A DNA stretch of 64,000 nucleotides from an uncultured Collinsella sp. (GTDB taxonomy: Bacteria > Actinomycetota > Coriobacteriia > Coriobacteriales > Coriobacteriaceae): positions 246,327-310,326 of the forward strand of contig CALJMO010000052.1 in assembly GCA_937982065.1 (NCBI GenBank). Direction: 5' to 3'. A program made the position numbers and the translations under genes. Positions within the stretch are counted from its first letter, which is position 1. Every line of letters starts with the position of its first letter. Positions 1 to 54,986 of the stretch are shown here, piece by piece. The notes under the pieces were generated by a model. That model made no database searches, had not been told where the DNA came from, and was given only the letters and a program-made list of their open reading frames with translations.

Positions 1-30
1 GGGGCGGGACGATCAAGCCAACCCCCAGAG

Positions 31-151
31 CAGTCAATTTGGGACGGGGCTTTTTTAGCTACCCCTATATGCCGACTGATCGTTATCCCAGCTCCAGATG
101 ATTCATCGGCAGTCAAAGGATAGCTAAAAAAGCCCCGTCCCAAATTGACTG
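31..151. repeat. MITE-like element: ~34-bp inverted repeats (31-65 / 118-151, 'cagtcaatttgggacggggcttttttagctacccc') flanking ~50 bp; a third copy of the arm lies at 45053-45080
   Basis: Inverted repeat read directly from the sequence; a similar motif recurs at ~45053. Confidence 0.6.
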
Positions 152-174
152 CTCCACAACGATCATGAGCGGCC

Positions 175-320
175 GTTGGGAAAGCGCGTCCCGGTCTCAG
201 AGCAAATTCCGGGTCGCAGTTTCCGCTTGAGGCGCCATCCGGAAACTACGTCCCAGTCTGAGCGCGGATTCCGGGATGGACTTTCCGCCTGGGCCGCCAT
301 TGGGAAAGCACGTCCCACTC
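175..320. repeat. BIME-like cluster of alternating-orientation ~16-bp motifs (GGGACGCAGTTTCCGC / GCGGAAAGTNCGTCCC); same family as 52700-52850
   Basis: Repeated palindromic units with 6-11 bp spacers; the family recurs at 52.7 kb. Confidence 0.6.
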
Positions 321-335
321 TGCGTCACTGAGGCG

Positions 336-386
336 TTTTCTTTACGCTCGCGCCCTGCACGGAGTTCGATTCTCCGCGGTACGGGG
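336..386 (+). repeat. tRNA-3'-half-like fragment (T-stem CGGAG/CTCCG, loop TTCGATT, then 'cggtacg g'); copy 1 of a ~50-bp direct repeat
   Basis: Canonical T-arm sequence but no matching 5' acceptor strand upstream; near-identical copy at 547-596. Confidence 0.4.
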
Positions 387-546
387 GGATCCGTTGATGC
401 GGCGCATGGCCGGCTGAGATTCGATAAACATCGCATCCATATTGAGCTGATAGTTTGCGCGGAGAATCCGCGTGTTCGCTTCGCGAACCCGCACCGGCTT
501 CGGCCGGCTGCCGCCGTCCTCGCCCGCGGGCTAAAAACGCTTCCGC

Positions 547-596
547 GTTTTCTTTACGCTCGCGCCCTGCACAGAGTTCGATTCTCCGCGGTACGG
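547..596 (+). repeat. tRNA-3'-half-like fragment, copy 2
   Basis: Direct repeat of 336-386. Confidence 0.4.
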
Positions 597-600
597 ACTA

Positions 601-641
601 GAAATAAAAAGGCAGGCAGATACGAATATCTACCTGCCTGT
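601..641 (-). terminator. Rho-independent terminator of ssrA (hairpin ggcaggcagata/tatctacctgcc, then a T-tract on the minus strand)
   Basis: Hairpin 611-640 immediately 3' of the tmRNA CCA end, followed by 'tttttatttc' in minus-strand sense. Confidence 0.7.
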
Positions 642-647
642 GACTTA

Positions 648-1011
648 TGGTGGAGGCGCGGAGAATCGAACTCCGGTCCACGAAAGCCCCCTGATTGGCA
701 TCTCCAAGCTCAGTCGCTGGTTTAGTCTCGGGCGCTTTGCGCGCAGCGACACGCTCGCGGCGTCCTAACCGGTTCGGTCTTAGCCTGCGCCATACCGATT
801 ACGTGCGCAGGAGCATTCCCCTAACATGACGTCGCGCCGGTGTCGGGGAAATCACCGGGTTGACGCGCCGCTATAAACTAAGCAGCGAGAGCCATAGGCT
901 CAAAAGAAGAGTTGTTGTCAATTCAATTTGACGGTACCCCTGTTTAACGAGGCGAGGAGACCTCGGCTTGCTTCCTCTCTCAGAGCTATCGTGTCGAAAC
1001 CAGTCGCCCCC
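648..1011 (-). ncRNA. ssrA: tmRNA (SsrA), ~364 nt
   Basis: Minus-strand 5' GGGGGCGACTGGTTTCGAC... and 3' ...GGACCGGAGTTCGATTCTCCGCGCCTCCACCA (tRNA-like T-arm plus acceptor with encoded CCA). Internal tag reading frame ends ...GCT CTC GCT GCT TAG (…ALAA*), giving a predicted tag ~DNNSSFEPMALAA. Confidence 0.88.
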
Positions 1012-1248
1012 GAATGTCGGGAAAGTCTGGATGACATTGGGCACGAGCACCCAACACCCGTCGACTTTTCAAGGAACGTGCAGGGCGAGCCCCGCTTGTG
1101 GAGTGTTATCTTACCACGTTCTGAAAGCGGACAGCTGTTCTATGCACGAGCTGTGAAGACCCCAATGTGCGCCGCACTTCGCACTTTTGCTACCGATCGC
1201 GTCACGTATATTTTCGCCAAGCAAAATTGACCCGTCGAAAGGACCGTT

Positions 1249-1683
1249 ATGGATACCAAGCAGCAACTCGTCAATGCCCTCGCAGGCCTGGGCTCAACCA
1301 TTACCGAAGCTATGGATGTCATCGAAGGCTTTGTCCCCTGCGGACATCCCGCACTCACGGTATCGAACGCACTCGTCGCGCTGGACGCTGACGATGATGC
1401 AGCTCTCGCCCAGCAGCTTGAGACCGTCGAGGGCTTTATCGACCACGTGAGTGAGAACCGCGGCGTGACCGCCTACCACGGCATCGAGGTCGAGCTCGCG
1501 GGGCCCAAGGCCGATCTGTTCGCAGCAATCCGCGAGGTAGGCGCCCTTATGCAGACCGCAGGCGTCAAGAACACCCAGGTCAACGAGTGGGTCTACCGCA
1601 GTCTGGCAGCACTCGACAGCTCCGATGAAAAGGCAGCCGAGCAGCTCGCAGAAAGCCCCGCCATTAAGGCCGAGCTTTTGTAA
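1249..1683 (+). CDS. hypothetical protein (144 aa), no recognisable motif
   Basis: Codon-consistent ORF with RBS AAAGGA. Confidence 0.5.
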   Translation: MDTKQQLVNALAGLGSTITEAMDVIEGFVPCGHPALTVSNALVALDADDDAALAQQLETVEGFIDHVSENRGVTAYHGIEVELAGPKADLFAAIREVGALMQTAGVKNTQVNEWVYRSLAALDSSDEKAAEQLAESPAIKAELL

Positions 1684-8898: not shown

Positions 8899-9012
8899 GA
8901 GATTCCTTTCTAACGGCTTGAGAGTTAACCGTAATGAACTTATCATTGATGTGTTAGCCATGGCTCACAATTAAGCCAGGCATGGACGTTTCTGCAAAGG
9001 AAAGGGACGCTT

Positions 9013-10017
9013 TTGCAAATACGGCGGGCAGCGACCGACATAACCGAGCTCTACGCACCACAGTTTGAGCAGTTTGGCCTGGAGCTTTCCGGCAAGGGCG
9101 CTGTCTTTACCGGCGAGGTGGCAAACGATCGGGCGCACGGACGCGCATGGATCATGCCCCTCTCCCCTGCCTGCATCGTCATGGAGCATTTCATCACCCC
9201 GACGCACGATATGTACCTGGCCGAATACACACCCGAGCCATATGCCTGCGTGAGCGAGGTCAGCGCGCCCACACTTACATGCATGCCCGAGGCTGGCATA
9301 ACGCCCGCGAACCTCAAACCATTGCATGGACCGTGGCCAAACAATGCCGTTTGCAGCTTTATCCAAGATAACTGTGGCGAGGAATTAAGCCCGCTGTTTG
9401 CGGGGGAGCTCTATCACTCGCGCTCGGTGCTCTTTTTGCCTGGATATTTTGACGAACTGGAGCACCGCTATCCCACCGAGTTCGCGGGAATCTTTGAGGC
9501 GTTTGCCGAGCCATGGCACGAGGAAGCGACGTCTGCCATCTGCCACACGCTGCGCCGGATTAACGAGGACCGCGCTCACACCGTAGGCGGACACGTCTAT
9601 ATGCAGGGCATCGTGGAGACCATGGTCGCGGAGCTCGCCTGTTCGCGCGCGGCCCACAAGCAGGCGCGGCAGGCGGCAGACACACGCGTCAGCATAACCA
9701 TTGCCGAAGAAGCAACGGCAATGATTGAGCGCGCGCTCGACAAAGGCAGACGTGTGGGTATCAACGAGGTGGCCGAGAGGCTCTACACAAGCCGCTCCAA
9801 ACTATGCGCCACCTTTAAGGCCCAAACTGGCGAGTCCCTGGGCACCTACATTCGCAGACGCCGTATGGAGCGAGCAAAGGACCTTTTGGCCGATAGCGCG
9901 CTCACAATAGCGCAGGTGGCAGAGCGTCTAGGCTACCCTCAACAGGCCGCCTTCGCCCAAGCCTTCAAACAATACACCGGCACCACCCCCACCGCTTGGC
10001 GAAGCAAGCATCGCTAA
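9013..10017 (+). CDS. AraC-family transcriptional regulator
   Basis: C-terminal double HTH (…IAQVAERLGYPQQAAFAQAFKQYTGTTP…); divergent from the ABC exporter pair. Confidence 0.8.
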   Translation: MQIRRAATDITELYAPQFEQFGLELSGKGAVFTGEVANDRAHGRAWIMPLSPACIVMEHFITPTHDMYLAEYTPEPYACVSEVSAPTLTCMPEAGITPANLKPLHGPWPNNAVCSFIQDNCGEELSPLFAGELYHSRSVLFLPGYFDELEHRYPTEFAGIFEAFAEPWHEEATSAICHTLRRINEDRAHTVGGHVYMQGIVETMVAELACSRAAHKQARQAADTRVSITIAEEATAMIERALDKGRRVGINEVAERLYTSRSKLCATFKAQTGESLGTYIRRRRMERAKDLLADSALTIAQVAERLGYPQQAAFAQAFKQYTGTTPTAWRSKHR

Positions 10018-44971: not shown

Positions 44972-45380
44972 AAAGCCCTCGGATAAACCCTCGGTTAGTC
45001 GAATACCACCATGCAATACTATCGCATCGACACGCCCCAGCTCCCAATCAGTCTTTTTGGGACGGGGCTCTTTTAGCTACCCTGGCCCGCAGATCGGCCC
45101 CCTTGCCACAAAAGTGGCCCATCTACTACGTTAACACGGACAGCCTCGGCCATACCGAAAACCGTGAAAACAAAACCGCAGGTAGGCAGCTTGTCGATTT
45201 TCGAAAAAGCCGGCTATGGTTGACCTCTGCGGCTTAAACGTAGTAGATAGGCCCTATTCGTGGCACAGCACCACTCCATCCCAAATTGGCACCCCGAGCC
45301 CTCGTGAGTTGCCAACAAGCTGTTCGACCAGCGCTTTATCCGCGCGGCATTTGGAAAATAGCACCACCGCAAAACCCGCG

Positions 45381-52586: not shown

Positions 52587-52699
52587 GTCCCCTCCCACGA
52601 CATCGCACATTCGGCCGGCAAACCCAGCCACGTGGTAGCTATTGTAGCGTTAGATGCTTGTTGAGGGCGGGACGGAAATCGCATCCCATTTCGAGCGTC

Positions 52700-52850
52700 A
52701 ATGATGGGACACAGTTTCCGCCAGAAGGCTCAACCGGAAAGTGCGACCCGTTATTTGGCTGGATTCTGGGACGCAGTTTCCGCTGAGCGACCCTGGCGGA
52801 AAGTACATCCCATTCTGGACGCAAATTCCGGGACGCAGTTTCCTCGACGT
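52700..52850. repeat. BIME-like cluster (family C), same motif family as 175-320
   Basis: Alternating GGGACGCAGTTTCCGC / GCGGAAAGTACATCCC units. Confidence 0.6.
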
Positions 52851-52942
52851 CCGGTCACCCCATGCCCTCACAACCTCGGCGCATAAAAAACGAGGGAAGG
52901 CACGCGTCCTTCCCTCGTTACGGGCAATATGTAGCCGCTTGC

Positions 52943-54730
52943 CTACATCAGGCGCAGGCTGACGTCCTTGAGCTGGGCGCCACTAACGGCACTCGGAGCA
53001 CCCGACATAAGGTCGGAGCCGCTGGCCGTCTTGGGGAACGCCATGACGTCGCGGATGGAGTCGGAACCGGTGAGCAGCATGCACACGCGGTCCAGGCCCA
53101 AAGCGAGACCGCCCATCGGGGGCGCACCAAACTTGAGGGCCTCCATGAGGAAGCCGAACTGCGACTCGGCGCGCTCCTCGGTAAAGCCCAGAAGCTTGAG
53201 CATGGACATCTGCATCTCGGCGTTGTGGATACGCATACCGCCGCCGCCGGCCTCAAAGCCGTCCATGACAAAGTCGTAGGTGCAAGAACCGGCTGCCAGC
53301 GGATCGGCCTCGATCTTGGCGATGTCGGTCTCGGTCGGCAGGGTAAAGGGCTGGTGCTCGGCAGCATAGGCCTTGCGATCCTCGTCCCAATGGAACAGCG
53401 GGAAGTTGACGACCCACAGGAAGTCGTGACCCTCGCGCTTGATCTCGAGCGCATTGGCCATGTGCGAACGCATGCCGCCCAGGATCTCGTCGGAGAGCAG
53501 GCGCGGGCCAGCAGCGAACATCACAAGGTCGCCGGGCTCGACGTCCATGCGCTCGCGCAGAGCAGCCATCTCCTCGTCCGAGAAGAACTTGACGATGGGG
53601 CTGTTGATGGAGCCGTCCTCGCGGAAAGCGATCCATGCCAGGCCCTTGGCGCCAAACGTGGAGGCCACGCCGGCGAGCTTATCGATCTTGGCACGTGCCC
53701 AGGCACCGGCGCCCTTGGCGTTGATGGCCTTGACGACAGAGCCTTCCTCGTTTGCGGCAGTCGCAAAGACCTTGAACTTGGAGTTGGCAAAGATGTCGGT
53801 CAGGTCGACCAGATGCATGCCATAGCGGGTATCGGGCTTGTCGGAGCCATAGGTGTCCATGGCCTCCCAGTAGTTCATGCGACGCAGCGGCGTGGGCATC
53901 TCGACACCCATGCGACCGAAGGCATCGGCAAGAACCTCTTCGAGCGCGCTCATGACATCGTTCTGGTCCACGAAGGACATCTCGATATCGACCTGGGTGA
54001 ACTCGGGCTGACGGTCGGCACGCAGGTCCTCGTCGCGGAAGCACTTGGCAACCTGGTAGTAGCGCTCAACGCCACCGACCATGAGCAGCTGCTTCAGAAG
54101 CTGCGGGGACTGCGGCAGGGCGTAGAAGTTGCCCGGCTGGATGCGGCTGGGAACGATGAAGTCGCGGGCGCCCTCGGGCGTGGACTTGAACAGGGAGGGC
54201 GTCTCGACCTCCATGAACTCACGGTTGTGCAGTGCCTCGCGAATGGCAAAGGTAAAGTCGGAGCGCAGCTTGAGGTTGGCCATCATCTCGGGACGGCGGA
54301 GGTCCAGATAGCGATAGCGCAGGCGGGTGTCCTCGCTGGTCTCGATGCCGTCCTCGATCTGGAACGGCGGGGTGACGGACGTGTTGAGAACCTTGGCGTG
54401 GTCGGTCAGGACCTCGATCTCGCCGGTCGCGAGCTTGGTGTTGGTGGTCTCCTCGCCACGGGCGCGCACGACGCCGTGAATCTTGATGGGCCACTCGGGA
54501 CGCATGGTCTCGGCGATCTTAAAGGCATCGCCGTCGGAGTGCTCGGGGTCGAAGGTGAGCTGCGTGATGCCCTCGCGGTCGCGAAGGTCGCAGAAAATAA
54601 GGCCGCCGTGGTCGCGGCGACGGCTCACCCAACCGGTGAGGGTGACCTCTTCGCCCACGTTCTCGAAGCGAAGCTCGCCGCAGGTACGGGTGTGCATGGA
54701 ATGCTCATCGATGGGACGGGTCTGGCTCAT
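52943..54730 (-). CDS. aspS: Aspartate--tRNA ligase (probably non-discriminating, given gatCAB)
   Basis: Class II aaRS motifs, OB-fold N-terminus; RBS AAAGGAGGA. Confidence 0.95.
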
Positions 54731-54986
54731 ACCAGTGATCCTCCTTTATGGATCTGTGCCGCCCCGTGTCGTTCCGGGCGGCGTCGTACAGATTTGCCCA
54801 GCCTGCGTAAACCGCGCAGCCGGACATGGCGTTCTATCTTATCGCACCCACGTCGATGTGCCGCGGAAAAGTAGCTCATGCCCAAAGACTTGACGGAGAC
54901 GAAACAATTGATGCGCCGTGGCCGTCGCCAAGGCGCGCCGCGTGCGACAATGTGCCCCAATACAACTGCACTCGGAAAGGCCCGCC

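Follow-up and report, generated by a model that had tools for sequence, protein, structure and literature searches.

The 64,000-nucleotide (nt) stretch of DNA analyzed here, called the window, comes from an uncultured Collinsella sp. (assembly GCA_937982065.1, contig CALJMO010000052.1, positions 246,327 to 310,326), and its first kilobase carries ssrA, the gene for transfer-messenger RNA (tmRNA), on the minus strand. Behind ssrA, three kinds of non-coding repeat are stacked within 650 bp: a palindromic insertion, an array of 62-nt hairpin units, and a hairpin-rich module of ~135 nt, which we name E and whose homologues also lie behind tRNA genes in related loci. An earlier reading of the letters by a model (the sequence-only reading) had flagged a palindrome, a repeat cluster and ~50-bp direct repeats here, and all three classes were reproduced. 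The related loci compared with the window bear L-numbers as labels (L141, L139, L065, etc.). The features of the region are the following:

28–154, no strand: palindromic insertion resembling a miniature inverted-repeat transposable element (MITE), with 37-nt terminal inverted repeats (arms 28–64 and 118–154; repeat finder)
166–322, no strand: array of hairpin repeats, 31/62 nt long, that alternate in orientation (repeat finder, TRF)
333–384, plus: remnant of an older, distal E, consisting of the last hairpin and the T-arm-like hairpin (T-arm 19/19 identical to ssrA; copy 1 of the direct repeats of the sequence-only reading)
385–456, no strand: variable inter-unit spacer, in place of a distal terminator (low conservation; also separates the units in the three-unit array of L065)
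457–468, no strand: eroded displaced fragment of the ssrA 3′ end, GCGCGGAGAATC (12-mer identical to 656–667)
469–596, plus: complete E module (>90% conserved in 109 sequences; covariation; homologues behind four tRNA genes)
474–479/483–488, plus: hairpin B, within the complete E
494–507, plus: hairpin CCGGC-UUCG-GCCGG, within the complete E
505–516, plus: hairpin CGGC-UGCC-GCCG, within the complete E
534–551, plus: hairpin AAAACGC-UUCC-GCGUUUU, within the complete E
545–559, plus: alternative hairpin, within the complete E
572–588, plus: T-arm-like hairpin of E (bases 574–590 are the ssrA T-arm, inverted)
597–665, left limit approximate, no strand: proximal duplicated segment, made up of spacer, terminator and the last 18–20 nt of ssrA (by analogy with L141 and the tRNA-Leu alleles)
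610–639, minus: intrinsic ssrA terminator, a 13-bp stem followed by a U tract (terminator scan)
648–1011, minus: ssrA, one-piece tmRNA gene (ARAGORN and Rfam RF00023 agree on the coordinates)
878–919, minus: tag reading frame GAC AAC AAC ... GCU GCU UAG, encoding DNNSSFEPMALAA* (gene positions 93–134; Rfam alignment, Asp resume codon)

Both programs bear out the gene and the strand that the sequence-only reading had assigned. The RF00023 match to ssrA scores 147 bits (gathering score 47, E = 1e-57) and runs the full length of the model (positions 1–374), a covariance model that covers the acceptor/T-arm domain and the pseudoknots, and the gene is 364 nt long in 109 of the 110 related loci from which it was recovered. 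The stem of its terminator is constant and the loop variable across 109 related sequences. We found no credible gene in 1–647, where each open reading frame (ORF) either runs into ssrA or is interrupted by indels between strains, in agreement with the earlier statement that the region 3′ of ssrA is without genes. Genomes of the C. tanakaei type lack ssrA beside the patatin gene that borders this region, so that comparison in other genera is limited to L139 and L141.

The direct repeats are 52 nt long (333–384 and 545–596) and 98% identical. The 64 kb contain three occurrences of the 19-mer CGGAGTTCGATTCTCCGCG, at 360 (plus), 572 (plus, one mismatch) and 657 (minus, within ssrA), against 0.08 in shuffled sequences, which means that the repeats carry the T-arm of ssrA itself, inverted. 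Identity between the repeats and ssrA is confined to these 17–19 nt, ARAGORN makes no tRNA call on the repeats, nor does Rfam even at E ≤ 10, and their other matches are solely T-arms of phage tRNA-His genes. The T-arm likeness that had been noticed is therefore real, but the repeats are not the tRNA 3′ half they were taken for, and they lie inverted relative to ssrA rather than as direct copies of an attachment (att) type. A tRNA pseudogene was rejected as their source, since they fail tRNA models and share only the T-arm, as was derivation of the whole module from tmRNA sequence, there being no similarity past the T-arm pieces.

Copy 2 of the repeats (545–596) is the gene-proximal end of the complete E, and copy 1 the end of an older unit whose truncation point varies between species. 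On the far side of the complete E, the 12-mer GCGCGGAGAATC at 457–468 equals 656–667, which identifies it as what erosion has left of a displaced duplicate of the final 20 nt of ssrA. The same position in L141, where the patatin is 84% identical, holds a 20-nt ssrA fragment plus a second terminator; in window orientation that locus reads terminator′, TGGTGGAGGCGCGGAGAATC, ~113 nt of hairpins, CAGAGTTCGATTCTCCGCGG, terminator, ssrA. Among relatives the array ranges from 0.25 to 3 units, with two or three full units of ~210 nt in tandem in L020, L103 and L065 (three in the last) and a single unit in other species. The spacer between patatin and ssrA spans 356 to 740 nt between strains; the stretch 455–647 is kept in all of them, 455–596 is >90% conserved in an alignment of 109 sequences, and 385–455 and everything farther left is variable or unalignable. 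All 119 genome hits of the inverted T-arm 20-mer fall at the ssrA locus of Collinsella species, most of them C. aerofaciens-like.

E has no coding capacity: a small protein was rejected because half of the species carry a 1-nt indel polymorphism. A promoter search found no promoter-like site, and Rfam 15 assigns the module to no family, with merely sub-threshold, chance-level hits in window 1–1300; in L284, L252, L227, L065 and L141 it matched only tRNA and tmRNA. Inversion as a switch, exchanging the T-arm and its inverted copy, was also considered and discarded, as no locus shows the terminator segment in the inverted state. In the distant relative L139, ssrA is inverted relative to patatin and E is absent; at 2760–2860 of that locus lies a 62-nt scar comprising an ssrA 3′ end, a terminator and a second GCTCCACCA. 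E misleads tmRNA and tRNA finders, as in L001, where ARAGORN reports a spurious permuted tmRNA spanning the module (9004–9492). The Rfam permuted-tmRNA model gives a weak match at 560–675 of the window.

Homologues of E stand behind tRNA-Arg(ACG), tRNA-Leu(CAG), tRNA-Ser(GCT) and tRNA-Phe(GAA) as well as beside ssrA, that is, at five target genes, and the order is common to all: terminator′, an 18–20-nt fragment of the gene end, the E core, the T-arm-like hairpin, the terminator and the intact gene. All five genes share the T-loop position at which the fragment begins, with the last 2–4 loop bases left (tRNA positions 58/59), and the cores, of which ~100 nt are common to the targets, are ~80–85% identical across them. 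The same core, the same T-loop junction and a duplicate of each gene's own end at five RNA genes form the signature of site-specific insertion. In L062 and L107 a terminator and the 3′ fragment of a tRNA, not of ssrA, stand before the E core, and a metagenome scan with the L062-type hairpin returned 98 gut contigs; in the 20 contigs examined by ARAGORN, every match lies ~140–220 nt downstream of a tRNA-Arg(ACG) gene. A blind count then scored inverted T-arm copies of at least 11 nt located 20–180 nt downstream of a gene, with an upstream window as control. Its outcome is given here together with each T-loop and the identity of the inverted copy to its own target:

tmRNA (ssrA): T-loop TTCGATT, identity 17–19 nt; inverted copy downstream in 99/107, upstream control 0
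tRNA-Ser(GCT): T-loop TTCGAAT, identity 17 nt; downstream in 42/48, upstream control 0
tRNA-Phe(GAA): T-loop TTCGATT, identity 13 nt; downstream in 1/2, upstream control 0
tRNA-Leu(CAG): T-loop TTCAAGT, identity 12 nt; downstream in 14/18, upstream control 0
tRNA-Arg(ACG): T-loop TTCGAAT, identity 11–12 nt; downstream in 109/137, upstream control 25, the genes being in tandem arrays
viral tRNAs: downstream in 0/18, upstream control 0

Empty and filled alleles both exist. At tRNA-Leu, L222 (empty) and L227 (filled) have identical flanks, and the filled allele holds ~135 nt of E together with a duplicate of ~70 nt. In L223, one of the tRNA-Arg copies is followed by a plain terminator with no T-arm copy. 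The tRNA-Arg(ACG) genes form tandem arrays of 1–3 copies between tRNA-Ser(GCT) and tRNA-Leu(CAG) (L284 6080–7480; L223 5040–6100), with a period of ~430–455 nt where each copy has an E and ~235–265 nt where it has none. Two further variants were seen, an E core joined to the 3′ fragment of a further tRNA in L107 (TGGTAGGGGCGGTGGGAC) and an E with another T-arm variant in L288 (GAGTTCGATTCCCCGC), and they suggest targets beyond the five characterized.

The hairpins of E are maintained by paired changes. Among 91 ssrA-type sequences, the pair 474/488 alternates between AT and GC, 477/485 between TA and CG with TG intermediates, 507/514 between CG and GC, and 534/550 between AT and CG, this last coordinate being approximate because a gap column was dropped (it corresponds to 534/551 in the formal count). 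That formal count, which took in 17 E elements from across the five targets, found 91% of cells paired and 11 pairs that change on both sides; none of 500 shuffles equaled the real values, and slid controls were far lower. In hairpin B, 7 of 10 pairs covary (GTTCGC/GCGAAC, ATTTGC/GCAAAT, ATCCGC/GCGGAT), AAACGC..GCGTTT does not vary in any of the five target types, and a possible long-range helix, 458–468/579–589, shows no variation in the sequences compared. The minus strand folds with z = −3.6.

On balance, we read E as probably a non-autonomous, T-loop-specific insertion module at the ends of stable-RNA genes. Insertion would take place in the T-loop, between tRNA positions 58 and 59, and would leave E flanked by a duplicated segment of ~65–85 nt comprising the last 18–20 nt of the gene and its terminator; the gene remains intact because this segment is present twice around E. 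At its gene-proximal end E carries, on the opposite strand, a T-arm-like hairpin that matches, in its loop and flanks, the T-loop of the gene it sits behind. Arrays could grow by repeated insertion or unequal crossing-over, and units could be lost by recombination between the duplicates. The module would be mobilized, now or formerly, in trans by a site-specific recombinase, and the T-arm mimic may be a determinant of target recognition or synapsis, or its match to the neighboring gene may be upheld by quasi-palindrome template switching. The stronger claim, in which E is a new non-autonomous mobile element, its T-arm mimic is a re-programmable target guide and its insertion duplicates gene end and terminator, strikes us as rather unlikely; on that reading, most stable-RNA genes of Collinsella aerofaciens-like bacteria would have their terminators from an element.

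Several observations count against insertion. No recombinase, transposase or autonomous copy of E was found, and no circular or excised form could be demonstrated. A duplication of 65–85 nt far exceeds ordinary target-site duplications, and classical integrase chemistry does not predict an inverted T-arm copy. The single copy in the empty tRNA-Leu allele L222 is a hybrid of both duplicates, which indicates that E was lost there by recombination between them and that the allele is a secondary loss rather than a pre-insertion site. Sampling was biased as well: the ssrA and tRNA-Arg loci were fetched by means of E sequences, and only the tRNA-Ser, tRNA-Leu and tRNA-Phe genes, as bystanders in loci fetched for other reasons, give the least biased counts. 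Conservation and covariation are equally compatible with a host function, and counts of G-U and A-C are balanced, which favors neither strand of E as the functional one.

Host function is the main rival, with scars of local rearrangement or of classical islands fitting less well. It would make E a structured element that benefits its bearer, a small RNA or a termination/processing insulator that separates the heavily transcribed ssrA or tRNA gene from the next operon, whose T-arm-complementary part acts on read-through precursors and which spread by duplication or conversion and was kept by selection. Conservation near the level of tmRNA itself across species, reaching the diverged L141, fits such a role, as do the compensatory changes in several hairpins, the invariance of AAACGC..GCGTTT in five target types, the minus-strand folding score and the placement of E always directly after a terminator. 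We nevertheless consider it unlikely, given that the module shows neither a promoter-like site nor an Rfam match, that its copy number runs from a fraction of a unit to three, that some tRNA-Arg and tRNA-Leu genes and the ssrA of L139 do without it, and that function leaves the duplicated 18–20-nt gene ends unexplained.

A process without any mobile element, in which a break in the T-loop or close to it is followed by fold-back priming on the terminator hairpin, tandem duplication and homogenization by template switching, would explain why the T-arm and its inverted copy sit near-symmetrically, ~18 nt on either side of the terminator stem, and why the units are tandem, in phase with the gene end and include the terminator in their duplicates. 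Independent events of this kind cannot, however, yield the same ~100-nt core, unrelated to tmRNA, at five genes, nor a boundary at the identical T-loop position everywhere, and we regard such scars as quite improbable.

The sequence-only reading had suggested that the region may be the edge of an integration hotspot extending leftward beyond the window. The left flank was inferred from human-gut metagenome contigs that carry the same genes (exact protein match to the 144-amino acid ORF at 1249–1683), and it holds patatin, whose start lies ~40–80 nt before base 1, then rplM, rpsI, glmM, a phosphotransferase system (PTS) EIIA gene and nagB, with no integrase within 9 kb in these contigs; the genes patatin-rplM-rpsI-glmM are housekeeping genes, and an island at this place was rejected. 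The hotspot claim stands in part, since ssrA is a live phage site in the genus and a displaced 3′ fragment is present at 457–468, but the phages that use it did not create the repeats that had been flagged. Of 119 species representatives, 12 have foreign DNA after the terminator and TGGTGGAG, and the junction sequences are of at least five kinds. The ORF next to the junction, in the cases examined, encodes a large serine recombinase (Resolvase, Recombinase and Zn_ribbon_recom domains) with a CI-like repressor behind it; at the opposite end of the phage it encodes a GH25 endolysin. These prophages insert between terminator and ssrA, outside the repeat field, so that 648–655 is a serine-recombinase attB in related strains, unoccupied in the window. 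In the lysogen L093 (2831–4992) a temperate phage is integrated at the final 8 nt of ssrA, with TGGTGGAG as the core; the motif TCGAAC stands 19 nt from the core start in attB and, in the half-site of attP, 24 nt from it, an offset of 5 nt. Two viral contigs (L143, L145) have an apparent matching attP, which contains neither a T-arm copy nor module sequence. Serine-integrase prophages were rejected as the source of E: this attP lacks it, and a hidden Markov model of the E core was negative in 74 further viral loci. In viral contigs E was seen only as host flank; such flank sits at the ends of predicted provirus contigs and may thus affect the calling of provirus borders.

The Islander criteria for islands at tRNA and tmRNA genes are taken here in the part quoted in PMC7192596. 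A displaced 3′ fragment in direct orientation, an island criterion, is present (12 nt in the window, 20 nt in L141, 18–20 nt at the tRNA loci), and an integrase inside the element, another, is absent, the insert being ~135 nt long, non-coding and polymorphic for a 1-nt indel. That the repeats are att-site scars of kb-scale islands or prophages in ssrA or a tRNA gene, as the earlier reading proposed, seems to us very improbable: the phage use of ssrA, the displaced fragment and the L139 scar speak for it, but the genes to the left are housekeeping genes without an integrase, the phage attP carries neither E nor a T-arm copy, the 52-nt repeats are inverted relative to ssrA, and the insert measures just ~135 nt at every locus.

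The other two repeat classes are separate from E. The arms of the palindrome at 28–154 are 97% complementary (chance expectation of such an arm, 0), and it was found in just 5 of 134 related sources, at differing positions, which is the behavior of a MITE. With terminal inverted repeats, small size, presence/absence polymorphism and several copies, we class it as a sporadic MITE; a target-site duplication and a parent insertion sequence (IS) were searched for, and neither was identified. A solo end of it, with three mismatches, lies at 45049–45079 of the window and likewise yielded no parent IS. After it, in an intergenic gap, comes a palindrome with 29-nt arms (45104–45265), and no transposase was found near the palindromes at 45049–45265. 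The 62-nt units at 166–322 (2.3 tandem copies, TRF score 155; 0 to ~5 copies across strains) are a separate dispersed family resembling repetitive extragenic palindromes and bacterial interspersed mosaic elements (REP/BIME), being short imperfect palindromes that alternate in orientation, intergenic and dispersed. A further array of this type lies behind the tRNA-Phe module in L252. In the window, a second 31/62-nt array, of GGAAAGCGCGTCCC-type hairpins, is found at 52664–52845, directly after the aspS terminator (~52886–52920); aspS is the ORF at 52943–54730, minus, with an aspS leader RNA (RF02930) at 54742–54825.

The tag of the tmRNA had been predicted from the letters to end in ...ALAA, and this holds. 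The Rfam alignment sets the resume codon at GAC, an Asp codon of the kind that is uncommon in tmRNA but has precedents, giving DNNSSFEPMALAA*. Across 79 distinct Collinsella tmRNAs this frame shows only three synonymous third-position changes, a TAG/TAA exchange (25 of the 79) and one conservative change, N to S; it is in frame, ends in ...ALAA plus stop, and evolves as coding sequence. The tag that ARAGORN calls for the window gene, ARQPGDFPDTGATSC, is in a different frame, which collects non-synonymous and stop-destroying substitutions in the same set. The substitution pattern together with the Rfam alignment therefore bears out the earlier tag reading, and the ARAGORN call is wrong for the Collinsella ssrA genes examined. 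A wrong tag of the same kind (ARQPGDFPDTGATS[CF] and close variants) appears at every Collinsella ssrA that it called in the loci. The distant L139 has DKNSSFEPQLALAA*, with one inserted codon relative to DNNSSFEPMALAA, and DNNSSFEPMALAA is the normal tag of the lineage. We found no paper on this peptide or on Collinsella ssrA in the searchable literature, the coverage of which is incomplete. On the 5′ side, ssrA adjoins a gene for a PIN-domain protein with a small upstream partner (1742–2649, minus), likely a toxin–antitoxin pair, beyond which lie a P-type ATPase and two ABC exporters.

The E family of hairpin-rich modules at tRNA and tmRNA 3′ flanks of Collinsella is apparently undescribed; we found no description of such modules in the searchable literature, whose coverage is incomplete, so that an earlier one is possible. 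What is set out above is a gene-less, structured module of 135 nt that repeats one architecture at no fewer than five RNA genes of a bacterium very common in the human gut. If E is mobile, it would imply an unrecognized insertion mechanism, or a recombinase with structure-guided, perhaps re-targetable, specificity.

The 3′ ends of tRNA and tmRNA genes are classic landing pads for integrative elements, and, to our knowledge, every scar so far known there is a simple direct repeat that derives from a kb-scale island. Williams reportedly described tandem genomic islands at these genes, with the scars they leave, in 2002 and 2003 (“Traffic at the tmRNA gene”). Like such tandem islands, the E loci combine an intact gene with a displaced 3′ fragment in direct orientation and a boundary in the T-loop, the terminator is supplied from the side of the element, and older units are pushed outward. 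Unlike them, the insert is only ~135 nt and holds no gene, the duplicate spans the whole terminator, E contains an inverted copy of the target T-arm, and the same insert recurs at five genes. The ssrA 3′ end (TGGTGGAG, plus strand) is itself a large-serine-recombinase attB in related strains, with the recombinase gene at the junction, whereas in the window this site is empty and unrelated to the flagged repeats. Cis-mobilizable elements (CIMEs) are att-flanked remnants of integrative elements without recombination genes. As read here, E is like them non-autonomous and bounded by an attachment sequence present in duplicate, and its recombinase would presumably act in trans; CIMEs are of kb scale and arise by decay of a known parent integrative and conjugative element, whereas E is uniform and hairpin-rich at all loci and has no known parent. 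From REP/BIME sequences, REPINs and palindromic elements derived from IS200/IS605, E differs in that it is no simple palindrome doublet, is tied to tRNA and tmRNA T-loops and has a long target duplication. It shares with this class its short, non-coding, hairpin-forming nature, its position just after genes, a structure kept by compensatory change and vertical persistence, and the 62-nt units at 166–322 fit the class well.

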